Positions 21,948 through 52,144 of a stretch of 64,000 nucleotides of DNA are shown piece after piece (the stretch's first letter is position 1; the number at the start of each line of letters is the position of its first letter). The notes beneath the pieces are model-generated. The model saw only the letters and a list, made by a program, of their open reading frames with translations. It was not told the DNA's origin and did no database searches. A program made the position numbers and the translations under genes. The stretch is from assembly GCA_016194285.1 (NCBI GenBank), contig JACQBZ010000035.1:64385-128384 (forward strand). Reading direction: 5' to 3'. This DNA is from Nitrospirota bacterium. Its GTDB lineage: Bacteria > Nitrospirota > Nitrospiria > JACQBZ01.

Positions 21948-21955
21948 CGCTGGAT

Positions 21956-23842: not shown

Positions 23843-23881
23843 TTTTCCGTCTCGATGAGAGAAACCGGGACAAATATCTCT

Positions 23882-25006: not shown

Positions 25007-25020
25007 ATCGATCCCCCGGT

Positions 25021-27335: not shown

Positions 27336-27435
27336 TTTTCTCCAATGTCATCATCTTTCAGTAAATTTACATCCCCATTCCTTATTTTCCATTTTTCACA
27401 AATTACAATCTCGATGCATCAGGGGGTGGTCAGCG

Positions 27436-28542: not shown

Positions 28543-28655
28543 TTTATCTTTCTCTTAATTACTCTATAGCCTAGCCCCCCGCAGCTTATGCCCCCGCGGA
28601 AAATAATGAAGAGTATTTTCACTTGTAACTCTGCCATGTAATTTCCAGATTATCT

Positions 28656-31257: not shown

Positions 31258-31279
31258 GTAGCCACAATACCCGTTCCCG

Positions 31280-32482: not shown

Positions 32483-32511
32483 ATCTTTTATATTCGCTAA
32501 CTTCCCTGGGT

Positions 32512-33651: not shown

Positions 33652-33740
33652 TTTTCCACCGAGTTACCCATCGATTTTAATGCATTAAATTAAGACTTCT
33701 GGGAAAGATGAGAGTTTCCAATAATTGATCCAAGTATTGT

Positions 33741-34745: not shown

Positions 34746-34817
34746 TATATCACCGTCGAAATCAAGCGATACGAGCCAATTAATAGACTTTTAATGCCAT
34801 CCATAGACACCTTGATC

Positions 34818-36734
34818 TTATAGGAATTCCTCCATCGAAGTATCTGGCGTAATATCTTTATCAATAAACAATCTATGCCAAAGCTCAAGCCACAATAGTG
34901 ACCATAACTTATATTCATGATCTTTCCCTACTAAATGTTCATTGATAATATGTTGAATATAGTCGTAATTAAAGTAGCCTCGCGTTCTTGCTTTATCGCT
35001 TAATATGATATTATACAAATATGGTTTTAATTCTTTTCTGAACCATGGTCCAACTGGAATTGCAAATCCCCATTTAGACCTGTAGATATTCTCTTTGGGA
35101 AGATATTTCTCGGAGAGTTTTTTTAACAGATACTTTGTCTGTTTTAACTTAATTTTATGACCCGACGGTATTTTAGCAGCAAATTCCATTATACGATAAT
35201 CAAGAAAAGGAGCTCTAACTTCTAAGGAGTTAGACATGGATGCCACATCCATCTTCACTTGATAAGCATCCGGTAAAATAGCATTAAAGTCTACAAATAG
35301 CACTTTATCTATATCATCAACTCCATCAGCATAATCATAAAATTCTTCATAAACATGCGACGGATGATGATATTCTAATCTTTCCATAAATTGATCGGAA
35401 TAGAAGTTTTCTCTATCATAATAATTTCCCATTTCATTTTTATATCGCAATCGAGTGGTTTCATTTATATAATTTTCATAAAGCCTGATACGCTTTAACC
35501 GATAAGATCTATCGGTGGAATCTCCAAAGGTATTAAAAAATGGATAAAGAATATTTTTTGAAATAAAACGAGGAACGAATCTTTTATATTTTAGCGCCCA
35601 ATTAACTGTTTGAGTCCTATCATAACCTGCGAATGATTCATCTCCACCATCGCCAGTCAAGACGACTTTAACATATTCACGTGCTAATTTAGAAATGTAA
35701 TAACTTGGAACAGCGGATGAGTCAGCAAATGGTTCACCGTAATTCCATACCAATTTCGGCAGGATATTAATACAATTAGCATTTAATATTAATTCATGAT
35801 GATCGGTATCATACTTATCAGAAATTTTTTTTGCAAAAGAAAGTTCATTGTAAGGCTGATAATCAAATCCCACAGAAAATGTTTTAACTTTGGATATGTG
35901 ACTGCTCATCAAAGCCACGATTAAACTTGAATCAATACCCCCACTGAGGAATGCTCCGATTGGAACATCACCAATCAATCTGTCTTTAACCGATTGATGT
36001 AACAAGCTGTCTATTACTTGGATATATTGATTCTCATCCATAACTTCTTTTTTCTTGAAGCTGAGATACCAATATCTTTGAATTATTGTTTTATCTTTTT
36101 GAAACACAACATAATGTGACGGTTGAACTTTTTTTATTCCTTTATATATTGTATGGGCCTGGGGAATGCATATATGAGCCAAATAACAATCAATAGCCTT
36201 TTCATCAATCACAAGATTACATACATAACCGCTATTTATTATCGATTTAATATCGGACGCAAATATCACAGACTCATTAACTTCTAAGTAAAATAAAGGT
36301 TTTTTGCCAACCCGATCCCGACATAATATTAACATTTCTTTCCGAGCATCCCAAATTGCCATTGCAAACATTCCATTCAACTTTTCAAAAACTTGTACTC
36401 CCCACTCTTCATATCCATGTATGATTACTTCGCTATCACTCTTTGATTTAAATACATGTCCAGCTTTTACAAGATTCTCCCTTATTTCACCAAAATTATA
36501 TATTTCCCCATTAAAAACCATCCAAAGTTGCTTGTCTTCATTACACATGGGCTGCTGTGCAGCGTCTGATAAGTCTATTATTTTCAATCGACGATGACCC
36601 AAACCAATATGCTCTCCCATATAAATACCGGCACCATCAGGGCCTCGTTCGATCATTATATCTCTCATCTTAATAATATGCTTTTCCAGTACAGGTGAAG
36701 TCCCTTTTATATAAACACCACAAATGCCACACAT
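34818..36734 (-). CDS. Asparagine synthase (glutamine-hydrolysing)-family amidotransferase
   Basis: MCGICGVY (Ntn Cys2), GHRRLKIIDLS, and the PP-loop FLSGGIDSS. Confidence 0.9.
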   Translation of the reverse strand: MCGICGVYIKGTSPVLEKHIIKMRDIMIERGPDGAGIYMGEHIGLGHRRLKIIDLSDAAQQPMCNEDKQLWMVFNGEIYNFGEIRENLVKAGHVFKSKSDSEVIIHGYEEWGVQVFEKLNGMFAMAIWDARKEMLILCRDRVGKKPLFYLEVNESVIFASDIKSIINSGYVCNLVIDEKAIDCYLAHICIPQAHTIYKGIKKVQPSHYVVFQKDKTIIQRYWYLSFKKKEVMDENQYIQVIDSLLHQSVKDRLIGDVPIGAFLSGGIDSSLIVALMSSHISKVKTFSVGFDYQPYNELSFAKKISDKYDTDHHELILNANCINILPKLVWNYGEPFADSSAVPSYYISKLAREYVKVVLTGDGGDESFAGYDRTQTVNWALKYKRFVPRFISKNILYPFFNTFGDSTDRSYRLKRIRLYENYINETTRLRYKNEMGNYYDRENFYSDQFMERLEYHHPSHVYEEFYDYADGVDDIDKVLFVDFNAILPDAYQVKMDVASMSNSLEVRAPFLDYRIMEFAAKIPSGHKIKLKQTKYLLKKLSEKYLPKENIYRSKWGFAIPVGPWFRKELKPYLYNIILSDKARTRGYFNYDYIQHIINEHLVGKDHEYKLWSLLWLELWHRLFIDKDITPDTSMEEFL

Positions 36735-36813
36735 CGGTCTTCAACCTCTTCAAACAAGATAATTATTACCGGACTTTTATATCGTATATACCCACGGTCA
36801 AAGCCCGTGGAAC

Positions 36814-38055
36814 TCAAAGGCGCAAGCAATCATTTAGCTCCTTCTCAATTAATTCAAGCATTTTATTTACCCTTCTATCCCAGGAATTTTCCCTTGCAAC
36901 ACTTTTTCTCTCTATCATTTTTTTTGTATCCAGTCTTTCTGCTATTGCCTTTATTATCGCATCTTCGAAGTCATCTTTATCAAGTACACTTTTCACAAAT
37001 TCACTACATTCTAAAGTATTACCTTGATCTACAGCCACAATAGGCTTACCCGCCGAAAGATATTCCCATAGCTTCAATGGAGCAGAATAAAAGTTAAACT
37101 CATTTTTCTTAAATGGGATCACGCATACGTCTACATAGCGTAGTATCGCTGGAATTAGCACCCTATTTACATGTTTTATATGATAAACATTTTTGAGTGA
37201 TTTCAGTTCATTGAATTTATTCCTGTCTATTTCATTATTTATATGTTCCCTACCAACCAAAAGCATTACCCATTCAGGATGTTTTCTCTTCAAGTACAGT
37301 AAGAGATCGAAATCAATTTTTGCTTGTATAGTACCCACAAAACCGATAACAGGGTGCATAAGATTCTCAAGGAATGACTTTAAATTCGAGGGTAGCATTT
37401 TTTCATTTTCATAGAGACCGTAATCTACACCATGCGGAATAAAGTATGTATGCTTTTTTATCTTACTAAGCTCCGAATATAATTCCTTAGATACTGCAAA
37501 GACAATATCCGCATTGTTAAGGATTCTGTCGCATCTTTCTCTGATACTGTTCAAATAAGTTTCGGAAGTTGCCCAATCCCCAGCATCTTTAGATAAAGGA
37601 GCAATGAAATGATCATACCAATCAGTTACGACCAGCTTGTATTTGAATAGATGATAGTAATCATATTGAATATCGGAGTAATTTACCCACAGAATACAAT
37701 CATTGAATTTCAGAGTTTTTACTTTCTCTTTAATGTCATTAAAAACAATTCTTTTATTAATCTTTTCGTAATTTAATCTTCTTACTAAGCGAATATTACG
37801 TGGGATCAGCCTAAAGGGTGAATACGAATATAAAAACCTCCCCTGGTATTTTAGCCGGCCAAGATTAAGAAGTTGCTTCCAGCTAACATAATCTGATATG
37901 GGTGACATTACAGAATAAGGAGGTTCAATAAAAAGCACCCTGTTTTTCTTTGCCAGATTCCACGCTATGTGATGACGTCTTCGCCACACAGAATTTTCCC
38001 ACGGTTCATTTGCTATAAATATGATGTCATGTTTTTGCATAGATTGTTTTAGCAA
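36814..38055 (-). CDS. GT-B glycosyltransferase (paralogue of 28656..29927)
   Basis: LIPAILRYVDVCVIPFKKNEFNFYSAPLKLWEYLSAGKPIVAVD. Confidence 0.65.
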   Translation of the reverse strand: MLKQSMQKHDIIFIANEPWENSVWRRRHHIAWNLAKKNRVLFIEPPYSVMSPISDYVSWKQLLNLGRLKYQGRFLYSYSPFRLIPRNIRLVRRLNYEKINKRIVFNDIKEKVKTLKFNDCILWVNYSDIQYDYYHLFKYKLVVTDWYDHFIAPLSKDAGDWATSETYLNSIRERCDRILNNADIVFAVSKELYSELSKIKKHTYFIPHGVDYGLYENEKMLPSNLKSFLENLMHPVIGFVGTIQAKIDFDLLLYLKRKHPEWVMLLVGREHINNEIDRNKFNELKSLKNVYHIKHVNRVLIPAILRYVDVCVIPFKKNEFNFYSAPLKLWEYLSAGKPIVAVDQGNTLECSEFVKSVLDKDDFEDAIIKAIAERLDTKKMIERKSVARENSWDRRVNKMLELIEKELNDCLRL

Positions 38056-38145
38056 CTTATTCTCATTTTCTTGAAAAAACTATTTCTTCTATGCCGCTAC
38101 ATAATATATATGCCTGACAAAAAGACTTTACAACAGAAAGAAACT

Positions 38146-40047
38146 TTAAAAAGACTGCCGCAGCCACAACTCCAGATTTATATATTTCCATATCGGGCGT
38201 GGATTTACAGGCTCGCCGTTCACAAACCCCTGAAAGTGCTTTACGACCGCATCACCATCGAAATATCGTCTCTCCCTGAAGCTCTTCGAATGGATTATTT
38301 CCTCTATCTGTTTCCTGCAATCAGTGCGGAACCATAGTATTTCGGGAGTAGCAAATCCTATCTTTTTTATACGTTGATGCACAGCATGAGGAAGGATCTC
38401 TTTAAGCGCATTGCGCAGGACTACCTTCCCTATACCATTTCGAATTTTTTGTCTTGAGGGCAGCGAGAAACAAAATTCCACAAGCCTGTAATCCAGAAAG
38501 GGGAGTCTGGATTCAATAGAAAACGCCATTGAATTCCTATCCTCGTATCTTAAAAGTGAAGGCAGACGCTCAAAGGTCAAAAAATGGTACAGGCTCTGAT
38601 CCATATATCCATTGTATTTTTCCTTTTCTTCAATCCCGCCTCCATGAGTCTTAATGAAATCCTTATTCAGCCAGGAAGGAAACAAACCCATTTCCTCATC
38701 CCCCAGTAAACGTCTTTTCCATCGGAAGGGATGAAAAGGGACAAAGTGCCTGAAAAGTTCTCTGACCAGCCACTGCTTAGGATAACCATGGTATTCGGAA
38801 TACTTGTCAATTTCGTTTTTCAGAGAACTCCACCTGAGTCCTTTGAATAAATCTTTGAAGTTCGCCAAAAAGTAGCTCCCGTATCCAGCCAGAATTTCAT
38901 CCGCCCCCTGACCATTGAGAACAACCGTAATGCCCCGCTCCCTTGCCAGCCTCATAACCATCCATCCCGCCCACTGGCTTGTGCCTGCTACAGGCTCACC
39001 CTGATCTTCAATAAACTTCGGCGCGAGGTCAAACAGTTCCTTCCCTTCAGGGAAAACGTAGTTGGTCTCAACTCTTGTTCTTTCTACGACCGCTTTTATA
39101 AATTCTCTTTCATCACACGCTTTATCTTCAAAGCATGCCGAGAAGGTTTTCTGTCTGCTGCCGATCACGCCGGGGTTAACGCCATCATTCGATATCAGTT
39201 TGCTGATCATGCAGACGATTGATGATGAATCCAACCCGCCGCTCAGACACGTACCCAGCGGAACCTCGCTCTGGAGTCTTAAACGTATTGAATCTTCGAA
39301 AAGGGCATGAAATCTCTGCGCAGCTTCTTGGTCTGAAATACGCACAATCTTTTTTGACGGATCCAGGTCCCAGTGTCTCGAAATTTTGCAGCCGCCATTT
39401 ATATCAACAACCATGCGGTGGGCAGGCACGAGCCTTTTAATCCCGTCAAAGAAAGTTTCCTCCGTATGGTCAATGTAGTCGTTATTTTCGTAAGCAAGGT
39501 AGTCAAAAATAACACGGTCGTTTGGCCCGCAAGGTATTTTTTTATCCGTGAGGATCGTCTTTATTTCTGAGGCAAAGATGAAGCGGTTCTCATCTAAAAA
39601 GTAATAGAACGGTTTTATTCCGAACCTGTCTCTCGCGCAAAATAATTGTTTTTTTCTCGTATCCCACAATGCAAAAGCCCACATGCCGTTAAATTTGTTA
39701 AGACAATCCTCTCCCCATTCCTCATACCCGTGAATAATTACCTCGGAATCCGTCCTGGATTTAAAAACATGGCCCCTCGCTTTAAGTTCAGACGCAAGTT
39801 CCGAATAATTGTATATCTCGCCATTATAGGTCAGCCATATCGTCTTGTCTTCGTTGCACATAGGCTGGTGACCGGCGGCGGTCAAATCAATGATCGAAAG
39901 GCGTCTATGAATCAAGGCAATTCCGTCGTCTAAATAGAACCCCGCGTCATCGGGTCCTCTGCGATAGAGGCTGTCACTCATCGCCTTTAGGGTCTCTTTA
40001 CCTATCGGCCGATCATTAAAATTCAATATTCCAGCTATTCCACACAT
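38146..40047 (-). CDS. Asparagine synthase (glutamine-hydrolysing)-family amidotransferase, second copy
   Basis: MCGIAGILNF...IHRRLSIIDLT...CLSGGLDSS. Start set to ATG 40047 so that Cys is residue 2. Confidence 0.9.
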   Translation of the reverse strand: MCGIAGILNFNDRPIGKETLKAMSDSLYRRGPDDAGFYLDDGIALIHRRLSIIDLTAAGHQPMCNEDKTIWLTYNGEIYNYSELASELKARGHVFKSRTDSEVIIHGYEEWGEDCLNKFNGMWAFALWDTRKKQLFCARDRFGIKPFYYFLDENRFIFASEIKTILTDKKIPCGPNDRVIFDYLAYENNDYIDHTEETFFDGIKRLVPAHRMVVDINGGCKISRHWDLDPSKKIVRISDQEAAQRFHALFEDSIRLRLQSEVPLGTCLSGGLDSSSIVCMISKLISNDGVNPGVIGSRQKTFSACFEDKACDEREFIKAVVERTRVETNYVFPEGKELFDLAPKFIEDQGEPVAGTSQWAGWMVMRLARERGITVVLNGQGADEILAGYGSYFLANFKDLFKGLRWSSLKNEIDKYSEYHGYPKQWLVRELFRHFVPFHPFRWKRRLLGDEEMGLFPSWLNKDFIKTHGGGIEEKEKYNGYMDQSLYHFLTFERLPSLLRYEDRNSMAFSIESRLPFLDYRLVEFCFSLPSRQKIRNGIGKVVLRNALKEILPHAVHQRIKKIGFATPEILWFRTDCRKQIEEIIHSKSFRERRYFDGDAVVKHFQGFVNGEPVNPRPIWKYINLELWLRQSF

Positions 40048-40051
40048 ACCG

Positions 40052-41236
40052 TTAATGACCTCTCGAAACTTCTTCAAAAAGCCTGTTCAGCCGTTTCGTA
40101 ACGACTTCATGGCCGAAGTTTTTCACGGCGTACTCCCGGATTTCCTCCTGATCATACCTTTCATAATTTACGATTACGTGCCTGATGCTCTCGGCCAGGG
40201 CTTGGGGATTGGCCTTTTCAACAAGAACACCTACTTTTTCATTCACCACCCCATCCGGACCGCCGGACTTCGTTGCCACTACCGGCTTCCCGCACGCAAG
40301 GGCCTCTATGATCGTAACGCCGAATGTCTCGAAGAGGCTGGCCGATACAAGAATGTCGTGCTCGTTTATAAGCGACGGCAATTCGCTATTAGCGCAGATG
40401 CCTTTGTAAGCAACATTCTTCTCCAATCGCATCTTCTCGATGGAAGCCAGCAGCTCTTGACCGCATTGGCCGAGAGGACCCACGATGCTAAGCTGAATAT
40501 CAGGAAACTCCTTGATGACGATCCGAATCGCCTCCAACAAATACCGGATGCCCTTTTCTTCCTCGACCCTGCCGACCACCAACAATCTAAACCTTCCGCG
40601 CGCGGTCTCGCTCCTCCTGCGTTGGGCGCCTTCCCTGTCGAGAGAGAATTTGTTTGTGTCAATTCCATAATAGGCTATCCCCAGCCTGTCGCCTTTAATG
40701 CCACAGGCCTGAATTTCCCTGAGCTGAAAACCGGTATAGATCGTGCGGTCGACATGATTGATGGTCTTCAGAACCCTACTCCCCCGATACGGTTCGTTAA
40801 AATAACTTGAAAACGGCCCTTGGAATTCGATGGTTACAACTGGAGCATTATATTGTTTTTTGAGCTTCCAGCCAACATAACCGGCAGGAAAGGATTTGTG
40901 GGCATATATCAAGTCCGGTCGGAAACCTGTTTCATTTAACTTCTTAGATGCAGTAACATAGGCAATGAACCCGTCGAGAATATAAAGCGCCTTCTTAAAT
41001 ACTATAAATACAGGGTATTTAATCCTGATAATACCCTCCTCGTCTCTTTTATCTGAATGTTCTCTAAATATGTGCCTTAGAAAAGACCTGACACCTATTC
41101 TCACAAATCGTCTCTCGACGACCATTACGCGCACCTCGTGGTCTTTTTTAAGATGTTCAACCTGTTCCTTAATAAAAATCCCTGCTATAGGATTTTCATC
41201 TGAAGGATAAATGTCGGTGATGATCAGAAGCTTCAT
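40052..41236 (-). CDS. Family 4 glycosyltransferase
   Basis: FETFGVTIIEALACGKPVVATKSGGPDGVVNEKVGVLV. Confidence 0.87.
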   Translation of the reverse strand: MKLLIITDIYPSDENPIAGIFIKEQVEHLKKDHEVRVMVVERRFVRIGVRSFLRHIFREHSDKRDEEGIIRIKYPVFIVFKKALYILDGFIAYVTASKKLNETGFRPDLIYAHKSFPAGYVGWKLKKQYNAPVVTIEFQGPFSSYFNEPYRGSRVLKTINHVDRTIYTGFQLREIQACGIKGDRLGIAYYGIDTNKFSLDREGAQRRRSETARGRFRLLVVGRVEEEKGIRYLLEAIRIVIKEFPDIQLSIVGPLGQCGQELLASIEKMRLEKNVAYKGICANSELPSLINEHDILVSASLFETFGVTIIEALACGKPVVATKSGGPDGVVNEKVGVLVEKANPQALAESIRHVIVNYERYDQEEIREYAVKNFGHEVVTKRLNRLFEEVSRGH

Positions 41237-41248
41237 GATAATTTCCGC

Positions 41249-42436
41249 TTAAATAACCCCCATGTACTTTTGGAGTATAGTCGATACCGCTAACCCGTCA
41301 TGCATCTGAACCGTCTTCAAAGCGTTTTCGACCAACTGTTCTCTTAAAGTCCCATTGTTTAATAGATTCCATATGGCCTCTTTTAACAACTCGGGGGACG
41401 GTTTATCTACCACAAGCCCCCATCTATATGTTTTTGCGTACCACGAGATATAAGCATCTTCCGGTGCGTGCACTAAAACCGGTGCGCCAGAAGCAAGATA
41501 CTCCGGTAATTTCCCGGGAGAGGCCGTTTTGATGATATCAGGATAAGGGCTATTAAAAGCCATGGGAAGAAAGAGGATATCCGCCTCTCTCTGAATGGAT
41601 GAAATCTTTGACGGATCAACATACCCGTGGTGAATGATATTGCTTCCGGATAGTCCCATGGTGATTAATTTTGGCACTGCCCTTTGGGAATAGATATGGA
41701 ATTCCACTTCGGACAGTTCATTTACAGCGCTAACCAGGTTCTGCAAGGCGTCCAACTGTGCTTCATAAATCATTCCGGTAAAGACGATCGTCTTTTTTGT
41801 ATTCCTATTTATCTTTACTTTTTTTGCAATTCGACTACCATTTTGTGGCAGCTCGATAGGGTGACGAAGTAATACAGTTTGAATGTTGTATTTCCTCTTG
41901 TAAAAATCTTGAAGCGCTTCGCTCATAACAAACACTTTTTTTGAAGCCCTCATAACCAACCTTTCTATGGGCACCGACATTAATTTTCTAATTTTAAAGG
42001 TCTGAGCAGCGCTGTAAAGATCAAGCATATAGACATAAAGAGGAATTCCTGTCAGTCTGTGCAAAATATATGAAGCCAACAGGAAATTTCCTGATGTCGG
42101 ATGTATTAGGATGTCTGTAACTTTTTCCTTTCTTATTATGGAAAGACCTTTTGCAACCATAGAGGGAACGTCAAGCCATTCCCGGATGGAGGACCATCGT
42201 GTATAATCCCCGAAGATAGTTTTGCCCACATAATAATGACCACATCGCAATTTATCACCCAGATCGGCTGCTGCGATGTTATTTTCATAACGGCTTGTTA
42301 GAACAATGTATGAATCCTCTGGGAAATATTTAAAAAGCCTCAGGAATATAGACGACGGACTATAAGGTATCGGTGGTACGCAGTGGGACATGAAAAGGAT
42401 TTTCGACACATTTCGCTCTGTAATATTGTTACACAT
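41249..42436 (-). CDS. GT-B glycosyltransferase (divergent)
   Basis: C-terminal ASPGKLPEYLASGAPVLVHAPEDAY; overall two-Rossmann layout. Confidence 0.6.
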   Translation of the reverse strand: MCNNITERNVSKILFMSHCVPPIPYSPSSIFLRLFKYFPEDSYIVLTSRYENNIAAADLGDKLRCGHYYVGKTIFGDYTRWSSIREWLDVPSMVAKGLSIIRKEKVTDILIHPTSGNFLLASYILHRLTGIPLYVYMLDLYSAAQTFKIRKLMSVPIERLVMRASKKVFVMSEALQDFYKRKYNIQTVLLRHPIELPQNGSRIAKKVKINRNTKKTIVFTGMIYEAQLDALQNLVSAVNELSEVEFHIYSQRAVPKLITMGLSGSNIIHHGYVDPSKISSIQREADILFLPMAFNSPYPDIIKTASPGKLPEYLASGAPVLVHAPEDAYISWYAKTYRWGLVVDKPSPELLKEAIWNLLNNGTLREQLVENALKTVQMHDGLAVSTILQKYMGVI

Positions 42437-42441
42437 AAAAT

Positions 42442-43596
42442 CTAAGCGAAGACTTTTCCTGGAACCAATCGGTAATATAGCCTTTCCATCTTTTCCATTT
42501 CTTTTGTAAAGTCAGCTTTTTCTTTTACGATATTAAGATTTCTCTCTATAAATACTTGTTTTGTGGCTTCATCCATTTCTATTGCTTTAACAATGCCGGC
42601 AGCTATTTCTGATATATTTTCAGGTTCTACTAAAAACCCATTAAAATTATCTTCTAAGTAAACTTTGATCGGAGGGATATCCCCCATAACAGGAATGACT
42701 CCCATCGCCATAGCTTCTAATACTGACTGCGGAAAAGTTTCTATTAATGATATCGAGACAAATACATCGGCTATAGATAAATATGAGGGTATTTTTTCTC
42801 TATCAACGCTCCCTATTAAGCGAACGCATTTACTTATCTTTAACCTGTCAACTAAATCTTTTAGTTCAGTTTCGAGTGGGTCGTTTGGTGGCCATATAAA
42901 AATAAATCTTGCATTAGGGATTTGTTTTATTACGTAAGGGATCGCCCTGACAATATTCAAAACATTGTAACTTATATTCCTGGTACTAATTGCAATCGAA
43001 TTATCGTTCAATTGCAGGTCGTTCCTGAGTTTATCTTCCTTAATATCCTTCTTGAATTTATCAAGTTCTACTCCAAATTGTATAATATTTATTTTATCCG
43101 GCCTGGCTCCATATTTAACAATACATTGCTCCCGCAGGTATTCAGTCTGCGCGGATATTACATCCGCTTTCCACAAGGCATATCTGACAAGAATAGGACG
43201 GAAAATGGAACGATTTTTTTTCCAGATAATGTCACCATTCCAGGGCATGACAATCAATGGCCTTCTCCTCGTGAAAACACCCAGTTGAGCTGGAAAATAT
43301 AAAGTATGCAGATGGATAATATCCGGGTTCTCTTTCTTAATTATTGTCCTGATTTTTGCAAGATTGGAAAGTCTTCTGAATAATTTAAAGTTATAATAAA
43401 AATAATTATAGACATATTCAATCCTCTTGTTTCTAAATTTATGGCTATCTACCTCGTATTGTTTGACGCCATCTATTGGAGAATACCTATCAGTAATCAA
43501 AGTTATTTCGTGGCCTCTTTTGGCAAACCATCCGGCAAATCTTTGCAAATGAATTGAATATGCCCAACCTATATAACAAATCTTCAATTTTCTCAT
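42442..43596 (-). CDS. Family 4 glycosyltransferase
   Basis: ETFPQSVLEAMAMGVIPVMGDIPPIKVYLEDNFNGFLV. Confidence 0.82.
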   Translation of the reverse strand: MRKLKICYIGWAYSIHLQRFAGWFAKRGHEITLITDRYSPIDGVKQYEVDSHKFRNKRIEYVYNYFYYNFKLFRRLSNLAKIRTIIKKENPDIIHLHTLYFPAQLGVFTRRRPLIVMPWNGDIIWKKNRSIFRPILVRYALWKADVISAQTEYLREQCIVKYGARPDKINIIQFGVELDKFKKDIKEDKLRNDLQLNDNSIAISTRNISYNVLNIVRAIPYVIKQIPNARFIFIWPPNDPLETELKDLVDRLKISKCVRLIGSVDREKIPSYLSIADVFVSISLIETFPQSVLEAMAMGVIPVMGDIPPIKVYLEDNFNGFLVEPENISEIAAGIVKAIEMDEATKQVFIERNLNIVKEKADFTKEMEKMERLYYRLVPGKVFA

Positions 43597-43636
43597 CTAT
43601 GTCTGTATGGACATTAAATTAGGCTGAATAGTTACA

Positions 43637-44833
43637 TTATATTTTCAATTGAATGTCACAGGCGGCCCTCAAGTCAGCTATTCCTTGTCGAGATGTAGTT
43701 TCTTTGACAGAGAATACGAAGGCATTATTCATATATTCCAAAAACTCCACAGGACCGCCATCCATTGACCTCGCAATATTGCAGCCTAAGCTGTATATAC
43801 CTTTTAACAGATTAACAATAAACTCAAATTTCACTAGTATGGTCTGGCCGGCTTCGCAAATAATATACTTGCCGGTCAGCAGATCGCTGCTGGTATCATA
43901 TACAACCAGCCCATCGGAGTATCTTATAAACATGCTGATAAATGCACTTTCCACTTTGGCATTGCAGGCTATTTTCAACTCAAAGACTGCCTTTTCACCC
44001 GCTTCAAATGTCTTCACCTCTTGACCTGAGCTGTTAGTCAGTCGCAATTCAATAAATCTAAAGGATCGAGCAAGCTTTTCACCTTTCTGCTTTTCTGACA
44101 TAACTTCATAGTACATTCTAATCGCCTCTTCGATTGCTCCATCATACGCCACCCGGCCTTCCTTGAGGAGTATCGCCCTGCCGCATAATTTTCTCACCGA
44201 ATCCAGGTTATGGGAAACGTATATAATGGTCTTATTGGAATCTCTGAAATCCTTCATCTTGCTGATGCATTTATCCTGGAATATATAATCTCCCACCGAA
44301 AGAACCTCATCGACCAGCAGGATATCAGGATCCAGATGCGCTGATACAGAAAATCCCAAACGCGCATACATGCCTGATGAATACCTTTTTATAGGTGTGT
44401 CAATGAACTTTTCTAAACCGGAAAATTCTATAATCTCATCGTACTTCCGATCTATATCAGACTTTTTCATCCCAATGATGGCCCCATAGAGATAGATGTT
44501 TTCCCGGCCGGTAAGCTCAGGGTGAAACCCTGCAGAAAGCTCAATCATGGCCCCGATCTTGCCTTTCGTCATAACCGTACCGGATGAAGACTTGGTGGCT
44601 CCGGCAAGGAGTTTCAGGATTGTGCTCTTGCCCGCCCCATTCGGGCCGATGATACCAACCGCCTCGCCTCTTTTAAGCTCAAAGGAAACATCTCTCAGTG
44701 CATAGAAGCACTCTGAATGAGCGTTACGCCTCATGAAGATGTTTACAATATCCTCTCTCAGGGAGCGATAACCTGTCTGCCCAAGCCTATATTGCTTGGA
44801 AACCTTTTCCATCTTTATTGCTAAATCACTCAT
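43637..44833 (-). CDS. wzt: Polysaccharide ABC exporter ATP-binding protein with C-terminal glycan-binding-type extension
   Basis: Walker A GPNGAGKST, signature YSSGMYARLGF, Walker B ILLVDEVLSVGD. Carries about a 150-aa beta-rich tail, as in Wzt/TagH. Confidence 0.85.
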   Translation of the reverse strand: MSDLAIKMEKVSKQYRLGQTGYRSLREDIVNIFMRRNAHSECFYALRDVSFELKRGEAVGIIGPNGAGKSTILKLLAGATKSSSGTVMTKGKIGAMIELSAGFHPELTGRENIYLYGAIIGMKKSDIDRKYDEIIEFSGLEKFIDTPIKRYSSGMYARLGFSVSAHLDPDILLVDEVLSVGDYIFQDKCISKMKDFRDSNKTIIYVSHNLDSVRKLCGRAILLKEGRVAYDGAIEEAIRMYYEVMSEKQKGEKLARSFRFIELRLTNSSGQEVKTFEAGEKAVFELKIACNAKVESAFISMFIRYSDGLVVYDTSSDLLTGKYIICEAGQTILVKFEFIVNLLKGIYSLGCNIARSMDGGPVEFLEYMNNAFVFSVKETTSRQGIADLRAACDIQLKI

Positions 44834-45631
44834 TTAGATCTTATCCGCAAAGGACAACTCAACGATCTTGAAGTACTTATACGATAAAAACAGCGTGATC
44901 AGCGATATAAAAGCCGATATTCCAAGGTAATAAAGATCAGGCGAGGCGCCTAATACCAGCACCTTTCTGTAACCGCCTATGATGGGCGCCATCGGGTTTA
45001 GCATATAGAGGGATTTGAATCCATCTGGCACTGAACTCAGAGGATAGATTACCGGACTTAGATACATCCAGAGCTGAATAAAAAAGGGCAATGCGTATTT
45101 TACATCTCGATAAAAAACATTCAATGCCGATGAAAATAACGCCACGGCGAGGGTAAGCAGCACCTGTATCAATAGTATGGGAATGACATAAAAAGCATAC
45201 ACGGTAAGCGTAACGTCATAAAAAACCAATAGGGCGATAAAGATGACTGCTGCAATACAGAAATCGACAGAGGCCGCAAGAATTGAGGCGATGGGGAATA
45301 TCTCCCTTGGAAAATATATCTTTGAAAGCAGATTGGCATTTGAAACAAGGCTGGGTATGGCAAAAGACAATGATGTAGCAAAAAATGTCCAGGGAAGGAG
45401 CGCCGTATAAGAAAATAAAGGATAAGGGATTCCATCACTGGGTATCTTGGCAAAGCGAGAAAACACGATAGTAAATACCATCATCATTAAGAGGGGCTGG
45501 AGTATCGACCAGAATATGCCGAGGACCGATTGTTTATACCGAACCTTTATCTCCCTTACAGTAATACTCAGCAGCAACTCTCTATACTTTAGAAGCTCTC
45601 TTATCTTCTCAATCATTTTATATCTCTCCAT
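44834..45631 (-). CDS. wzm: ABC-2 type polysaccharide exporter permease
   Basis: 6-TM ABC-2 profile, RYKQSVLGIFWSILQPLLMM, directly abutting wzt. Confidence 0.85.
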   Translation of the reverse strand: MERYKMIEKIRELLKYRELLLSITVREIKVRYKQSVLGIFWSILQPLLMMMVFTIVFSRFAKIPSDGIPYPLFSYTALLPWTFFATSLSFAIPSLVSNANLLSKIYFPREIFPIASILAASVDFCIAAVIFIALLVFYDVTLTVYAFYVIPILLIQVLLTLAVALFSSALNVFYRDVKYALPFFIQLWMYLSPVIYPLSSVPDGFKSLYMLNPMAPIIGGYRKVLVLGASPDLYYLGISAFISLITLFLSYKYFKIVELSFADKI

Positions 45632-45655
45632 TTCCAGTCAGGGGTTCCTTCTGAA

Positions 45656-47386
45656 TTACATCGATACGGGAGAAACATCTGAAGCTCGTCCTCTATCAGG
45701 CACATGTCCTCCCTGTGCTTTTCCCATTGCCCCATAGCTCATGATTACCGCTGCGATACTCCAGAAGACTAATCCTTTGTCTATTTCCTTAACATAGGCA
45801 AATGTAATCCCATCAGTAAGATTATTGCTCAGAAAAACAATCATAGAGATCAATAAAGAATACTTAAACACACCATCGCTGTCAGCCTTTTTAACAAGAC
45901 GGATGCCCTTGGCTACAATCGTGGATAAAATTGTCAGTAACAGTAAAACGCCCGGCATGCCCGTTTCAGCGAGATAGTTAAGGTATAGGTTATGGTCTGA
46001 AATCATGGAGACATAACCCGACGCCCAAGGAGCATAATAGAGCGTTTCATAATTTGCATATTCTTGATTAAATCTTCCGATTCCGACCCCTGTCAGAGGA
46101 TGGTCTCGGAACATTCCCAGAGCAGCTCTCCAGCCTCCATAGCGCTCTTCCATGCTCGATGTATGGACGACATCTTCTAACGATCTCAGGTTATTATATT
46201 TGCTCAAATAGGGATCCAATTTCTCAGAGTTAAAAATAAATACAAGCCCACCCACGGCTACAGTTAATACCGCGTACTTTCTTATATTTTTGTTGAGCCC
46301 AAATAGTAATAGCCCAACCGCCATGCTTATCTGCGCCATTCTTGCAAAAGACAGTACGAGACCTACTATTCCCATGGCTGCTATAACGCAGAACAACAGC
46401 TTCAAACTTTTTGCACGCGCACTGGCCAGGAAAGCAATGACAATCGGTATCACCATGATCAATCCATTTGCGACAAAAACTCCATCGGCAAAATTGAGAT
46501 ACAGTGCGTATCGATTATCAATAAGCTCTGAGCCTCCATATTTTGCGAAGTAATACAGAACCAATGTCAGATTTAGAAAAACACCGGCAACAAGATACGC
46601 CATAAACCTCCGGATATCCGTTTCATATTTGATACTGTTTATGACAATAAAATACACTACGATGGGATAAATGATCTCAAACAACCATCGTTTGAGACTA
46701 TACGCAATATCTATAGAAAGGACAGCGGAGAAAAATGTCACAAGGATAAACATCAGAACAAGGACATTAAATTTTCCTTTCACGATAGTTTGTTTATTGA
46801 TAAAATAGTTGACAATAAACCAAATTAGTGCAAAGAGCATGATGATGGCTATTTTTATTGTAATCCATTCAAGGCTGAATTCTATTTTCCTTGTTATCTC
46901 GAATTCAGCGTAAGTCATGAGCGGCAGTGAGATCAGCAACAGGCCAATGCCGTCAATCGATTTATCATTTAAAACCATATAAACCGCGTACAGAAACAAA
47001 AAGATAATGATGCCGATCAAAATGGGAACGATAAAATCAAAGGGGTTCAAAGCGACGGAAGCACCCAGTGCGACTGCCAGCACAATGATGACCGGGAAAA
47101 CCTGCCAGCCGATGTTAAGCGGTGATAAACTGAAAAACGCAGAGATTTTGAGACCCTCCTGAGCGCTTACCTTTATGACGGCAATCGATATACCAAGGAC
47201 AATGACCGGTCCAAGCGCAAAAATCCATCCACTGACGCTCACGCCGGGGTTGTCAGCTATCATCAATCCCAAACGATAGGCCACAATTCCCCCCAGCAAC
47301 TGAAGGGCGACGTTCAGATAATTTTTACGCAGGTATTCCAATTCGATTAAACCCCGCAATAATCTTGACCACAGTGGATGACACAT
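45656..47386 (-). CDS. O-antigen ligase/polymerase-family (Wzy_C) membrane protein
   Basis: More than 10 TM helices. Loop ERYGGWRAALGMFRDHPLTGVGIGRF. The ORF-track start overlaps the epimerase by 62 nt; GTG 47284 (preceded by GGGGGA) is a more likely start. Confidence 0.75.
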   Translation of the reverse strand: MCHPLWSRLLRGLIELEYLRKNYLNVALQLLGGIVAYRLGLMIADNPGVSVSGWIFALGPVIVLGISIAVIKVSAQEGLKISAFFSLSPLNIGWQVFPVIIVLAVALGASVALNPFDFIVPILIGIIIFLFLYAVYMVLNDKSIDGIGLLLISLPLMTYAEFEITRKIEFSLEWITIKIAIIMLFALIWFIVNYFINKQTIVKGKFNVLVLMFILVTFFSAVLSIDIAYSLKRWLFEIIYPIVVYFIVINSIKYETDIRRFMAYLVAGVFLNLTLVLYYFAKYGGSELIDNRYALYLNFADGVFVANGLIMVIPIVIAFLASARAKSLKLLFCVIAAMGIVGLVLSFARMAQISMAVGLLLFGLNKNIRKYAVLTVAVGGLVFIFNSEKLDPYLSKYNNLRSLEDVVHTSSMEERYGGWRAALGMFRDHPLTGVGIGRFNQEYANYETLYYAPWASGYVSMISDHNLYLNYLAETGMPGVLLLLTILSTIVAKGIRLVKKADSDGVFKYSLLISMIVFLSNNLTDGITFAYVKEIDKGLVFWSIAAVIMSYGAMGKAQGGHVPDRGRASDVSPVSM

Positions 47387-48422
47387 TGTTCATGAGGTAT
47401 TCCCTCGGTACGACCCAGTCCTTTTTTTCTGCAAGGACCACACCCACGCATCTCATCATATCATCCGGCTCATTGCCCGTTATTATATTACTTCCCACCT
47501 CAACAGTCTCCGGTCGTTCAGTCACATCCCTTATTGTCACGTTTGGAATTTTAAAGATACAGCACTCTTCCTGAACCGTGCCGCTATCGGTGATGACACA
47601 AAAGGCCTTCTGTTCAAGGGCAACGAAATCAAGAAATCCGAGTGGTCGAAGGAAATGGATATTCTTATGGCCTAAGGTCAGCCCAAAAGCTTTCATCCTG
47701 CTTTCCGTTCTCGGATGGAGGCTGCATATAACCGGCATTTTATATTTAGTCTGTATTTTATCGAGCACAGTTAATATGTTGGACAAACGGTGCTTGTTAT
47801 CAACATTCTCCTCCCGATGCATCGTAACAAGAAAATAGCTCTGAGGTTCTATTCTTAACCTTTCATGAATATTGCTCCCCTTTATTTTTTTGCCATGCGT
47901 ATTGATAACTTCATAGATCGGGTTCCCGATAACATAAATTCTATTGATCTCAATTCCCTCTCTGAGCAGATTTTCCTTGCTGTTATGCGTGTAAGGCAAA
48001 AGAACGGTGCTCGAATGATCGATAATCCTGCGGTTCACCTCCTCCGGGACACGATCGTCGAAGCATCGGTTGCCCGCCTCCAAATGATAAACAGGAATCC
48101 CCATACGTTTGGCTACGATACTGACCAAGCCGCTGTTCGTGTCTCCTAAGATGAGAATTTTATCCGGTTTTGCTTTCTTGACGGCCTTTTCGGATTCTAT
48201 AAATAGTTTGCCGATTTGTTCGCCAAAAGTCTTTCCTTTTACACGAAGATATAAATCAGGTTGACGTAGTTGTAAGTCATCAAAGAATATTTTGTTAAGG
48301 CTGTCATCATAATTTTGCCCGGTATGGACAAGGATGTGATCACAGTGATGATCAAGCTTTTTGATAATAAGAGATAGTCGGATGATCTCCGGACGCGTAC
48401 CCAGAACCGTCATTACTTTCAT
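47325..48422 (-). CDS. UDP-HexNAc 2-epimerase, FnlC/WbvD/CapG type
   Basis: MTVLGTRPEIIRLS...HTGQNYDDSLN...EAGNRCFDDRVPEEVNRRIIDH. Confidence 0.85.
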   Translation of the reverse strand: MKVMTVLGTRPEIIRLSLIIKKLDHHCDHILVHTGQNYDDSLNKIFFDDLQLRQPDLYLRVKGKTFGEQIGKLFIESEKAVKKAKPDKILILGDTNSGLVSIVAKRMGIPVYHLEAGNRCFDDRVPEEVNRRIIDHSSTVLLPYTHNSKENLLREGIEINRIYVIGNPIYEVINTHGKKIKGSNIHERLRIEPQSYFLVTMHREENVDNKHRLSNILTVLDKIQTKYKMPVICSLHPRTESRMKAFGLTLGHKNIHFLRPLGFLDFVALEQKAFCVITDSGTVQEECCIFKIPNVTIRDVTERPETVEVGSNIITGNEPDDMMRCVGVVLAEKKDWVVPREYLMNNVSSTVVKIIAGFNRIGIPA

Positions 48423-48460
48423 ATTAAAATCCTTATGACAGAAAAACCGAAGAGATATTA

Positions 48461-49507
48461 TTAGGAATCTATTAAAAGATTGTTCTTCCTAAGCAGGTCC
48501 CTGATTTCATCCTTGCTCATTAAAGCCTCCGCTGAGGTGTACTCTTTTTTAAGGCAAGGGGTGATCTCTTCAGATGATCTTAATTCTGGAAGTATGGGTT
48601 GAATGGCGAAACAACCACCCCGATCAATCGTTCGATAACACTCCTCATCAGAAATGAGCACTTCATGTACTTTTTCACCCGGACGGATGCCGATGTATTC
48701 TATTTTTATTCTTCTCCGATCAACCAGAACTTCAACAACATCTGTGATTTTAGCCGACGGGACTTTGGGAATATAGGTCTCTCCCCGATCCGCACTCTTT
48801 ATAGCAGCGAATACAGTATCAACGGCCTTATCCAGGCTCATCATAAACCTCGTCATATCGGGATCCGTAATCGTTACAGGGCCTCCTCTTTTTATTTGAT
48901 CAATAAACAATGGAATGACCGAGCCCCTTGAAGCCAAAACATTCCCATATCTTGAGCAAATAAATCGTGTTTGGGGGCACTTTAGATTCCCGCCAATCAA
49001 AATCCGCTCTTGGATTGACTTCGTCATTCCCATAACGTTAACCGGTTTGCAAGCCTTATCGGTCGAAACGGCGACTACGGTTTCCACCTTGAAGTCATTA
49101 CACGCAATGGCCGTTACGATATTATTCGCTCCATGAATATTCGTCTGAACGGCCTCAAAGGGGAAATATTCACACGTCGGCACCTGTTTCAAGGCGGCCG
49201 CATTGATAACAATGTCCACGTCTTTTAACGCCATTTGAACCGAGTGAAAGTTACGGATATCCCCGATCTGGAATTCCAGGACATCAGTGGGTTCCCGGTA
49301 AATAATTTCATCTGTGGCCGATAATTTATGCTTCCACTCCAACCTCATTTGATGCTGCTTCGCTTCATCACGGGAAAAGACGATTACCTTGGAGGGGAGG
49401 CCAAGTTCGCCGGTCAGAATCCTTGAGATCAGCTTCTGCCCTAAGGAACCGGTGCCGCCCGAGATCAGTATTTTCTTGCCTTTAAATATCAATCGAGCTC
49501 CTTTCAT
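48461..49507 (-). CDS. UDP-GlcNAc 4,6-dehydratase/5-epimerase, CapE/FnlA/WbvB/PseB family
   Basis: ILISGGTGSLGQKL...AAALKQVPTCEYFPFEAV...STDKAC.PVN.MG.TK...RYGNVLASRGSVIPLFIDQIKRGGPVTITDPDMTRFMMSL. Confidence 0.85.
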   Translation of the reverse strand: MKGARLIFKGKKILISGGTGSLGQKLISRILTGELGLPSKVIVFSRDEAKQHQMRLEWKHKLSATDEIIYREPTDVLEFQIGDIRNFHSVQMALKDVDIVINAAALKQVPTCEYFPFEAVQTNIHGANNIVTAIACNDFKVETVVAVSTDKACKPVNVMGMTKSIQERILIGGNLKCPQTRFICSRYGNVLASRGSVIPLFIDQIKRGGPVTITDPDMTRFMMSLDKAVDTVFAAIKSADRGETYIPKVPSAKITDVVEVLVDRRRIKIEYIGIRPGEKVHEVLISDEECYRTIDRGGCFAIQPILPELRSSEEITPCLKKEYTSAEALMSKDEIRDLLRKNNLLIDS

Positions 49508-49538
49508 TTTTAGATCGTCCTTCGCTTGATTGGACCCT

Positions 49539-50423
49539 TTAAAAACGCCACTCTTCGTAAGCCGGAACCCTTTGAGCCAAGTCCTCTATCATTTCATTCC
49601 ATGTGGGAATACGGATGTGTGTCATCTCTCTGAACTTTGTTGAGTCAAGACTTCTGTTCATAACAACGAAATCATCCGGAATAACGTCCATGCCTAACTT
49701 TAATGTCTTGTCAAGTTTTTTTAATAGATCATACTTATTAATCGCTTCAGTTGAAACATGGAGCAGGCCATTCACGTTCGAATGTTTTTCAATGAGAATT
49801 CCAATAATTTCAGCGATGGCATAGGTCGTTAACCCGGAGAAAACTGCCTTTCGGTAACCGCGGACCTTCCCTTTCTGTGAAAGGAACCACTCCAGAAGAC
49901 CTTTCGACCCCGATAATTGCCTTCCCACAATGGATGCCCTGAGTGTCAAGCATCTATTCCCGGTCACCTCCCCCAGATATTTCGTCCTGCCATATAAGTC
50001 ATCCGCATCCGGAAAATCATTTTCCACATAGTTTCCTTTTTCGCCTGAAAACACGCAATCCGTACTCATATGTATTAAGCGTATATTTCCATCGTCGCAC
50101 AGCCTCGCCAGCTTGTGTGGAAACAGAGCATTCAAAGAAATGGCCGCAATAGGATATTTTCCTTCCGGCAACTGTTTTACGATACCCACACAATTTACAA
50201 TAACACTTGGCCTTGCAATCTCCAACGCTCTTTTCAAATCATTGTCGTCAAGCACATTAACTTCATCGATAATGCTCTTGTCATCCCTGCTAAAAAACAA
50301 ACAACTTCTCCTAAGTTCCTTAAGGCCGCCACGGATAGATCCGAACGTTTCAAGTTTATCCCTTAAATGTGACCAAATAGCATGTCCAAGCATGCCGGTT
50401 ACGCCTAAAATCAAGATTCTCAT
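49539..50423 (-). CDS. RmlD-like (dTDP-4-dehydrorhamnose reductase family) SDR
   Basis: MRILILGVTGMLGHAI...STDCVFSG..G.Y.E.D...LYGRTKYLGE. Start trimmed to ATG 50423. Confidence 0.8.
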   Translation of the reverse strand: MRILILGVTGMLGHAIWSHLRDKLETFGSIRGGLKELRRSCLFFSRDDKSIIDEVNVLDDNDLKRALEIARPSVIVNCVGIVKQLPEGKYPIAAISLNALFPHKLARLCDDGNIRLIHMSTDCVFSGEKGNYVENDFPDADDLYGRTKYLGEVTGNRCLTLRASIVGRQLSGSKGLLEWFLSQKGKVRGYRKAVFSGLTTYAIAEIIGILIEKHSNVNGLLHVSTEAINKYDLLKKLDKTLKLGMDVIPDDFVVMNRSLDSTKFREMTHIRIPTWNEMIEDLAQRVPAYEEWRF

Positions 50424-50532
50424 CTCTCTTTCCTGGTCATCCTCCGGAAGAGGCTTGCACACAATCTTTGAGCCGGGTCGTGTGGTCTCGATCGATGTTC
50501 GTAACCGCCTCGCCCATGATGTGTTCACAGGA

Positions 50533-50544
50533 CAAGCTACCGCC
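50533..50544 (-). promoter_or_regulatory. ops (operon polarity suppressor) element
   Basis: Minus strand reads GGCGGTAGCTTG. This matches the enterobacterial ops consensus GGCGGTAGnnTG in all specified positions. It lies 85 nt after the rfaH-like stop and 110 nt before the first glycan gene. Confidence 0.7.
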
Positions 50545-50628
50545 ATTCCGGTCTATGACCGGCAGGCCGCCACTCGTTTCCATGTTGCCTTCAACTGCAA
50601 TTCCACCGGTACTTGCGCCGGCTTTCCT

Positions 50629-51162
50629 TTAGTGAACGCCTGCCCCGACAGCCACGACCTTTTCCCGTTCAATGACCACGCGGGCCTGATAGGCCAGGGC
50701 CTGAAGGAGCAGCACCACACGCTCCCCACCGCTCATCGGCCGCTCAAAGACGGCCAATAAACCCTTTAAAGGCCCTTCCTGGATCGTGACGGGGCCCTGA
50801 GGTTGAAGAGGAGGTTCAGGAAGGGTCACAAATCCTTCCTTCACACTTGCCCTCAGGCTATGGATGATCTCCGGATCTATGGGCTCCGGATGCGGGCCAA
50901 AGGCCACCACCCTTCGGACGCCCCTGGCATACTGCACGGTACGATAGTGTGATTCCAGACTGAATCGAGCGAAGAGATATCCCGGAAAGAGCGGGCCGGT
51001 CGCCACCTTCCGGCTTCCCCGAATCCGTTTACTCTCCCGAAGTTTCGGATAGAACATCTCAATCCCTGCGCGGCCCAGAAGCCACACCACCTGCTCTTCC
51101 TGATGCGGCTTGGTGTTCACGGCATACCATCGGGTACTGTCTTTCGCTCTCTCCAGAATCAT
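50629..51162 (-). CDS. RfaH-like specialised NusG paralogue (NGN + KOW)
   Basis: WYAVNTKPHQEEQV...PLFPGYLFARFS...ARGVRRVVAFG...IIHSL...VTIQEGPLKGLLAVFERPMSGGERVVLLLQAL aligns by eye along the whole length of E. coli RfaH (PLFPNYLFVEFD, TRGVSHFVRFG, VIITEGAFEGFQAIF). Confidence 0.8.
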   Translation of the reverse strand: MILERAKDSTRWYAVNTKPHQEEQVVWLLGRAGIEMFYPKLRESKRIRGSRKVATGPLFPGYLFARFSLESHYRTVQYARGVRRVVAFGPHPEPIDPEIIHSLRASVKEGFVTLPEPPLQPQGPVTIQEGPLKGLLAVFERPMSGGERVVLLLQALAYQARVVIEREKVVAVGAGVH

Positions 51163-51233
51163 CGACCATCATCCCTTGAGCTTGGCCTCGATTCTTGTGC
51201 CTTCCCTTCATACCGTTGCCTTATCTCTCCTAC

Positions 51234-51263
51234 AAATCTTAACAGGCCTGCGATGCCGCACAT
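51234..51263 (-). pseudogene. Relic 5' end of an asparagine-synthase gene (F1, 10 codons)
   Basis: ATGTGCGGCATCGCAGGCCTGTTAAGATTT = MCGIAGLLRF; compare MCGIAGLLKF in F3. Confidence 0.6.
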
Positions 51264-51335
51264 TTGCGTATATCGCGTTTTTGCGTTTGTCGCGTTTCTT
51301 GAGTTTATTGCGTTCATAGCGTTTGTAGCGTTTGT
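51264..51335. repeat. Eight tandem 9-bp units, consensus nGCGTTTnT
   Basis: TTGCGTATA TCGCGTTTT TGCGTTTGT CGCGTTTCT TGAGTTTAT TGCGTTCAT AGCGTTTGT AGCGTTTGT. Confidence 0.85.
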
Positions 51336-51343
51336 TTATATTA

Positions 51344-51372
51344 TTGACATTTGTGACATTAAATGCCATAAT
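51344..51372 (+). promoter_or_regulatory. sigma70 promoter of TA cassette 1 with TGACATT direct repeat
   Basis: TTGACA-17 nt-CATAAT. TTGACATTTGTGACATT contains TGACATT twice. RBS AAGGAGG precedes ATG 51396. Confidence 0.65.
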
Positions 51373-52141: not shown

Positions 52142-52144
52142 ATG

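Follow-up and report, generated by a model that had tools for sequence, protein, structure and literature searches.

We analysed a 64,000-nucleotide (nt) stretch of DNA from a Nitrospirota bacterium, hereafter the window, in which a gene for an RfaH-like paralogue of NusG, a leader carrying a canonical ops (operon polarity suppressor) element directly behind a short hairpin, and a long string of glycan genes follow one another on the minus strand (Table 1). We think it likely that together these form a self-contained operon-polarity-suppression module of the RfaH/JUMPstart type. An RfaH/ops interpretation had already been put forward in an initial annotation of this DNA, and it is supported by family scores, motif conservation and enrichment; that annotation nevertheless noticed neither the hairpin conserved 5' of ops nor that the protein is predicted to lack autoinhibition. 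The layout it described, with the leader set between the NGN+KOW protein and the glycan genes, is as we find it. The same holds for the span, strand and content of the glycan string, although this consists of 23 open reading frames (ORFs) and not the roughly 25 first counted.

Table 1. Features of the RfaH/ops locus (positions are those of the window)
Feature	Position	Strand	Basis and remarks
rfaH-like gene, 177-amino-acid NusG paralogue, NGN + KOW	50629..51162	-	ORF; Pfam NGN
Stem-loop CCGGT(C)-ata-(G)ACCGG	50548..50562	-	5-6 bp; ends 3 nt before ops
ops GGCGGTAGCTTG	50533..50544	-	Direct read and pattern search; non-template strand
Leader, 205 nt	50424..50628	-	From rfaH-like stop codon to first cargo gene; guanine-plus-cytosine (GC) fraction 0.57, host-like
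Cargo, 23 co-directional glycan genes	21288..50423	-	ORF list and Pfam; GC 0.34-0.50, below flanks
AT-rich divergent intergenic region, 209 nt	51163..51371	.	GC 0.43

The regulator is nearest to RfaH

A Pfam search finds the NusG NGN domain in the 177-residue protein, and its top NCBIfam family is RfaH, with 104.9 bits for TIGR01955 and 89.9 bits for NF006534. Scores with the other families are lower, and none reaches its cut-off: 66.3 bits for UpxY (NF033644; cut-off 100), 38 for LoaP (NF033641; cut-off 125) and 26 for NusG (TIGR00922; cut-off 135.7). The protein thus has the features of the RfaH functional family, namely an NGN domain, a single KOW domain and greater proximity to RfaH than to NusG, UpxY or LoaP, and it is not a housekeeping NusG. 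The best sequence matches in the PDB are entries for E. coli RfaH (E ~9e-16, residues 11-156), while NusG entries match at E ~1e-3; BLASTP against E. coli RfaH gives 33% identity over 146 residues, bearing out an alignment that had originally been made by eye. An identical protein is present in NCBI (HY203_05195), where it is annotated as hypothetical in a Nitrospirae metagenome-assembled genome (MAG).

In the RfaH:ops9 crystal structure the side chains in direct contact with ops are K10, H20, R23 and R73 (PMC5995543), and an alignment with E. coli RfaH shows K10, R23 and R73 to be kept here as K18, R31 and R80. Residues tied to autoinhibition are E48, I93 and F130 (PMC7593976). I93 and F130 are retained, along with R138, as I100, F139 and R148; E48 is replaced by G56.

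An ops element conserved beside the gene

The element GGCGGTAGCTTG is read directly on the minus strand at the position originally proposed, 85 nt beyond the rfaH-like stop codon, and agrees with E. coli ops at all specified positions; the ops sequence GGCGGTAGnnTG is accordingly found in the non-template strand of a target leader, as in known RfaH targets. A search with the pattern GGCGGTAGNNTG, in which the ops census for the host genome covers the 64-kb window, returns this site as the single match (0.08 expected, both strands). For one strand of the 205-nt leader the chance expectation is ~1e-4, the order that had been estimated before. A pause would be expected at T11 (50534). The bare 8-mer GGCGGTAG has one further copy in the window, at 26738-26731 on the minus strand, where it lies within a GT2 glycosyltransferase gene on the sense strand of the operon in the context GGCGGTAGGATT. 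We considered this copy as an internal reloading site and rejected it, since it is without TG at positions 11-12 and such copies occur at about the chance rate.

Conservation of the motif was examined in 160 homologue loci from species-representative genomes and metagenomes, together with five annotated contigs. We defined a near zone as the flanks of the homologue, up to ~300 nt upstream and 350 nt downstream, on the strand that encodes it. Across 163 related loci, GGCGG[T/C]AG occurs 76 times in 100 kb of this zone where 8.1 occurrences are expected, an enrichment of ~9-fold (Poisson P ~1e-46); the background is taken from the rest of the same loci on both strands (206 occurrences in 2,554 kb). 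Within the sequence compared, the motif is therefore far more frequent than background, and it adjoins the homologous gene on the same strand, as the initial annotation would have it. Among loci of at least 38% identity it is present in 40 of 64. Two layouts are found. In the first, ops lies 59-222 nt past the stop codon, as in the window; in the second it lies ~80-100 nt before the conserved W12 codon, and the regulator is therefore itself inside the ops-led unit. The arrangement is found in Nitrospirota, Nitrospinota, Chloracidobacterium (Acidobacteriota), an alphaproteobacterial MAG, Marinobacter and other Gammaproteobacteria.

Across 34 non-identical ops elements, G1, G2, C3, G4, G5, A7 and G8 are invariant. 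Position 6 varies and follows lineage: among loci L001-L165, 40 have T, 17 have C and five have A. In E. coli the substitutions G4C, G5A, A7T and G8C abolish recruitment, while T6A costs ~3-fold (PMC5995543), a mutational profile that the pattern of conservation matches. Mutual information with ops base 6, a measure confounded here by phylogeny, ranks the column equivalent to Q24 second and places R16 and E19 in the top 12, which is suggestive of co-variation between helix alpha1 of the ops pocket of the protein and ops base 6.

These data bear on the simplest alternative, namely that the 12-mer arose by chance or is a coding part of an extended first cargo gene, and that the protein is an ordinary NusG copy. 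The longest ORF of that gene (49539-50546, minus strand) does begin at an ATG that overlaps ops, being formed by the spacer 'aAT' and the first G of the element, and would add a 41-residue N-terminal extension; the further copy of the 8-mer, at about its chance rate, could also be cited in favour. The Pfam domain RmlD_sub_bind, however, begins at residue 1 of the protein starting at 50423, so we rejected the start at 50546 as spurious and delimited the leader accordingly. The scarcity of matches expected in the leader, the missing TG of the second copy and the NusG score all speak against this alternative. So does the conservation of the motif across loci, which holds whatever the downstream gene or the reading frame, many spacers creating no ATG. 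We conclude that the ops match is not due to chance; the comparative data effectively refute this reading, to which we give almost no credence. The related locus L161 likewise has its next gene called from a start (10605) upstream of ops (10617), which places the element inside the called gene.

A covarying hairpin directly 5' of ops

The element in the window reads CCGGTC-ata-GACCGG-aat-GGCGGTAGCTTG, and its hairpin has a local minimum free energy of -9.5 kcal/mol. Local folding places a hairpin at the same position in 34 of 34 related elements (mean z -2.1). A fold of the whole leader RNA is not significant (z = -1.17), so that it is the local hairpin alone that is supported. The stems differ in sequence by lineage, with 5' and 3' arms of ACGGCGG and CTGCCGT in L082, CCGGCG and CGCCGG in L006, CTGGT and ACCAG in L021, AAACGG and CCGTTT in L024, TTCATGCGT and ATGCGTGGA in L025, CGGGTGAAC and GTTCACCCG in L037, and ACGGTGT and GCACCGT in L116. 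Some contain G-U pairs, which fit with an RNA of the sense strand, and the spacer to ops is mostly 2-3 nt.

A covariance model built from seven elements has a single match in the window; it scores 49 bits and the runner-up 8 bits. A scan of 100 sources with this model yields 40 copies at E<=0.01. Every one is on the gene's strand, and 39 are within ~300 nt of the gene. An alignment of the elements with MAFFT was ungapped and left the 5' stem arms out of register, and it was replaced by one derived from the covariance model (A5). Being fitted to the model, this alignment tends to favour the structure that was modelled; with that caveat, 98.8% of its cells are paired and double (compensatory) changes are seen in four of five pairs. 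The observed values are not attained in any of 500 shuffles, and controls in which the alignment was slid collapse.

A stem-loop immediately 5' of ops in the 5' untranslated region of polysaccharide genes is the architecture by which JUMPstart has been described (PMC2864571), and it is present here. The E. coli JUMPstart 39-mer CAGTGCTCTGGTAGCTGTAAAGCCAGGGGCGGTAGCGTG, found exactly in 2,123 E. coli genomes and at >=80% coverage in 5,426 of 5,426, has a CTGG/CCAG stem ending 0-1 nt before ops. The Rfam JUMPstart model (RF01707), on the other hand, gives no match at E<=10 in 50300-51400, nor at E<=1 in five related loci, Marinobacter among them. We therefore call the element JUMPstart-like in architecture and do not claim membership by the model. 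Other Rfam matches in the leader and the five loci were a chance mir-763 and an unrelated gabT RNA, neither of which is relevant.

Paralogues of the LoaP type use leader RNA hairpins. One might therefore suppose that the protein binds the hairpin of the nascent leader, and that ops is present merely as a consensus pause. The compensatory changes and G-U pairs do indicate that the hairpin acts at the RNA level. Yet the sequences of stem and loop vary freely by lineage where ops positions 1-5, 7 and 8 are invariant, and a pause alone requires the flanking G and TG of ops and not its central GGTAG (PMC5995543). Given also the low score of the LoaP model relative to its cut-off, we regard recognition of this kind as very unlikely, and take ops itself to be the probable recruitment signal.

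Gene context in related loci

In Nitrospirota contigs the homologue lies within exopolysaccharide (EPS) clusters, after Wza-like, Wzc-like and Bac_transf genes and often separated from them by gaps of a few nucleotides. It is evidently co-transcribed with the upstream genes in these relatives. Past the homologue come the hairpin and ops, and then variable glycosyltransferases and modification enzymes. This order sets the module at the boundary between conserved and variable genes, like JUMPstart in enteric O-antigen loci.

Some relatives carry more than one element. In L163, and similarly in L001, a hairpin-ops element stands on both sides of the rfaH-like gene (9961-10001 and 10603-10643), and the two copies share an identical 3' flank, TCATGAGC, which suggests local duplication and possible autoregulation. 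L165 has a second element (1437-1482, 33.6 bits) in the EPS cluster that also holds its rfaH-like gene, ~8.5 kb upstream of this gene, and there the element precedes a gene for a 405-residue protein without a Pfam match; the regulator may there serve more than one transcription unit.

A separate group of loci of Candidatus Binatia type (L033, L046, L113, L076, L029 and L107) has a conserved GGGCGGAGCYATG in place of ops, 70-120 nt downstream of the rfaH-like gene. This could be ops minus one base, or a Shine-Dalgarno sequence with an ATG.

Predicted structure and the question of autoinhibition

AlphaFold2, run with a 92-sequence family alignment, models the C-terminal domain as five-stranded beta (predicted local distance difference test, pLDDT, 89.4), and with a shallow alignment of 10 sequences the domain is again beta, though less confidently so (pLDDT 75). 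The first Foldseek match in the PDB is 8phk_P, fully recruited RfaH on an ops-paused complex, which aligns over the full length; the autoinhibited RfaH entries 5ond, 2oug and 8pfg align over the NGN domain only. The alpha-helical C-terminal domain of autoinhibited RfaH, with its E48-R138 salt bridge, is not what is predicted here, the model being beta and the E48 position G56. By the criteria of PMC13015549 the protein is thus predicted to be non-autoinhibited and to belong to the 'monomorphic', constitutively active class.

This prediction matters for a second alternative, in which the protein is an autoinhibited, trans-acting RfaH of the E. coli kind with several ops-led targets, and its position beside the operon is incidental or marks one target among several. 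The canonical ops element would suit such a factor, as would the conservation of the residues equivalent to I93, F130 and R138 at the autoinhibitory interface, and the second element of L165 makes action beyond the adjacent leader plausible. The linkage of gene and element, however, is conserved in Nitrospirota, Nitrospinota, Acidobacteriota and Pseudomonadota, the C-terminal domain is modelled as a beta-barrel with deep and shallow alignments alike, and both the NGN-only match to autoinhibited structures and the loss of E48 run counter to it. We consider a trans-acting RfaH of this kind unlikely, though less so than recognition of the LoaP type, and favour a cis-encoded module.

The cargo operon, its leader and the upstream region

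The cargo is tightly packed, with gaps between ORFs of <=113 nt. Sugar-nucleotide genes recognised by Pfam are an FnlB-like reductase, an FnlA/CapE-like dehydratase and a UDP-GlcNAc (UDP-N-acetylglucosamine) 2-epimerase (FnlC-like). Export and polymer functions are represented by a Wzy_C/WaaL-type protein and an ATP-binding cassette (ABC) exporter of Wzm and Wzt, the latter with Wzt_C, and the glycosyltransferases comprise about nine of GT4, a GT9 heptosyltransferase and a GT2. A methyltransferase, a DegT aminotransferase, a PglF/WbpM-like dehydratase and a Bac_transf priming transferase are also present, as are two AsnB-like glutamine amidotransferases (643 and 638 residues, within 34818-40077) and a B12-binding radical S-adenosylmethionine (SAM) enzyme (25021-26277). 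The cargo is an O-antigen/lipopolysaccharide (LPS) locus of the ABC-transporter type, and the AsnB-like pair and the B12-radical SAM enzyme suggest unusual sugar amidation or methylation chemistry.

Base composition changes sharply just behind the ops leader, as had been noticed at the outset. The regulator gene and the leader have GC values of 0.58 and 0.57. The first cargo gene is at 0.43, mid-operon (the 34818-40077 region) is as low as 0.34, and the last three genes are back at 0.50-0.56. Values in the flanks are ~0.60 or higher.

A search of the minus strand of the leader between the stop codon and ops found no sigma-70-like promoter or terminator, though Nitrospirota promoters may differ. 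A separate operon promoter in the leader is thus unsupported, and co-transcription of regulator and operon in the window is likely. The AT-rich region upstream of the rfaH-like gene is likely to be the promoter region for both. A promoter scan finds a weak promoter-like site there on the minus strand (51369-51340), and the region contains a 9-bp tandem repeat of 8.2 copies (51264-51336; plus-strand unit TTGCGTTTG) between the rfaH-like gene and an HTH_17/PIN pair. This repeat may be an operator array or an element of promoter architecture.

Directly upstream of the regulator, at the high-GC border of the glycan island, are three PIN-type toxin-antitoxin modules (51372-53960), consisting of HTH_17 with PIN, a MazE/AbrB-like gene with PIN, and a further PIN.

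A proposed mechanism

On the interpretation we favour, transcription would begin in the AT-rich stretch that precedes the rfaH-like gene and would continue through this gene. The short hairpin would fold in the nascent RNA some 70 nt beyond the stop codon, and RNA polymerase would pause at U11 of ops, with the non-template strand exposing a small ops loop from G4 to A7 closed by a C3:G8 pair. The NGN domain of the protein, made from the same transcript a few dozen nt further upstream, would bind ops and the polymerase clamp, stay there and exclude NusG, such that Rho-dependent and silencing-type termination would be suppressed across the 29-kb low-GC operon; the KOW domain may in addition couple the polymerase to the lead ribosome. 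Given the predicted loss of autoinhibition, specificity would come from ops recognition combined with local production in cis. The hairpin might serve as a pause-stabilising element in the exit channel or as a barrier to backtracking, roles that its distance from the paused RNA 3' end would fit. A long, tightly packed, low-GC LPS operon belongs to the classic target class of RfaH, which favours this scheme.

Several points weigh against it. The protein falls short of both RfaH equivalog cut-offs (144.5 bits for TIGR01955 and 124 for NF006534), and two residues that matter for ops are changed, H20 to L28 and Q24, which belongs to the T6 pocket, to A32. The exact core motif is absent nearby in 24 of the 64 close homologues. 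Co-transcription of regulator and operon from the putative promoter region is an assumption of the scheme. Finally, with its 3-nt spacer the stem stops 14-15 nt short of where the RNA 3' end is expected, slightly beyond the distance of classical pause hairpins or of the E. coli JUMPstart stem, and the role proposed for it is tentative.

Relation to known systems

The locus has much in common with RfaH and the JUMPstart-borne ops of E. coli and Salmonella, which act on LPS, O-antigen, capsule, hly and tra operons. The regulator has the same NGN+KOW composition at 33% identity, the ops element is shared, a stem-loop stands directly 5' of it, the element lies at a boundary between conserved and variable genes, and the target, a glycan operon, is long, low in GC and horizontally acquired. 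The differences are equally clear. Here the gene for the regulator stands 85 nt upstream of the element, whereas rfaH in E. coli lies elsewhere, forms a monocistronic unit and works in trans; the C-terminal domain is predicted to be a beta-barrel and not an autoinhibitory alpha-hairpin, and E48, H20 and Q24 are unconserved. Compared with E. coli JUMPstart, the hairpin is shorter-looped, stands 2-3 nt before ops as against 0-1, and goes unmatched by the Rfam model. The host phylum, too, is a different one, Nitrospirota.

Cis-encoded relatives of RfaH have been described. RfaH clusters CL2-CL8 neighbour cell-envelope genes, and an order has been proposed in which action in cis came early and ops contacts and autoinhibition came late (Wang et al. 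2020, PMC7593976). Monomorphic RfaH homologues predicted by AlphaFold2 adjoin LPS operons and were ops-independent in an E. coli reporter, and it has been proposed that their production in cis is by itself what targets them (Tabilo-Agurto et al. 2026 preprint, PMC13015549). The protein in the window resembles those of both studies in being cis-encoded, in its AlphaFold2 active state, in the loss of the E48 salt bridge and of some ops-contact residues, and in adjoining a long LPS operon; it differs in that a canonical ops element and hairpin are strictly conserved beside the gene, here and in relatives. The main texts of the two papers do not mention Nitrospirota, and a literature search for RfaH and Nitrospira found nothing relevant.

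Another parallel is PrfaH of IncX plasmids, which has been described as a cis-encoded RfaH paralogue with an ops-like site near its own gene and a long adjacent operon as target (PMC11880322). It differs in serving a plasmid conjugation operon in Enterobacteriaceae and in having ops upstream of the regulator gene. This ops-upstream layout is not that of the window, but is found in some Nitrospira relatives, L008, L011 and L017 among them. UpxY of Bacteroides capsule loci, TaA of Myxococcus and LoaP of Bacillus are likewise specialised NusG paralogues, encoded within or beside the long operon, for a polysaccharide or a secondary metabolite, that they antiterminate. Their recruitment signals, however, are not ops, and the UpxY and LoaP models score 66 and 38 bits here as against 105 for RfaH.

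In light of these parallels, the features that the initial annotation singled out as unusual are real, but their unusualness was overstated, since they are largely precedented. Encoding of the regulator in cis, in particular, occurs in Marinobacter and other Pseudomonadota, and has been reported in PMC7593976, PMC13015549 and PMC11880322. What is new is the phylum range of RfaH and ops, the presence outside Gammaproteobacteria of a JUMPstart-like hairpin-ops element supported by covariation, and the strict conservation of ops beside cis-encoded regulators that are predicted to be non-autoinhibited, which bears on the order in which the system evolved.

Implications for the evolution of RfaH

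It is possible, and we offer it as a tentative proposal that may well prove wrong, that Nitrospirota, Nitrospinota, Acidobacteriota and some Pseudomonadota share a lineage of cis-encoded, non-autoinhibited RfaH-like factors that need both ops and the RNA hairpin. If so, ops recognition and the hairpin-ops module would predate, or be independent of, the alpha/beta fold switch, in conflict with an order in which action in cis came early and ops recognition and autoinhibition came late. The T or C at position 6 of ops would in that case follow changes in the NGN-domain helix alpha1 and constitute a natural specificity code.

The RfaH/ops/JUMPstart paradigm has been worked out almost entirely in enterobacteria. 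The loci described here extend it to Nitrospirota and neighbouring phyla, environmentally important nitrifiers included, and indicate that the architecture of a hairpin followed by ops is conserved well past the reach of the Rfam model. In practical terms, the element marks the boundary of variable O-antigen/EPS cargo, and it misleads gene callers into extending the first cargo gene. Natural test cases for the current model of RfaH evolution are provided by cis-encoded regulators of predicted constitutive activity that nonetheless stand beside a strictly conserved ops, and their paired variants, with T or C at ops position 6 and with ops upstream or downstream of the regulator, could be used to dissect recognition and autoregulation.

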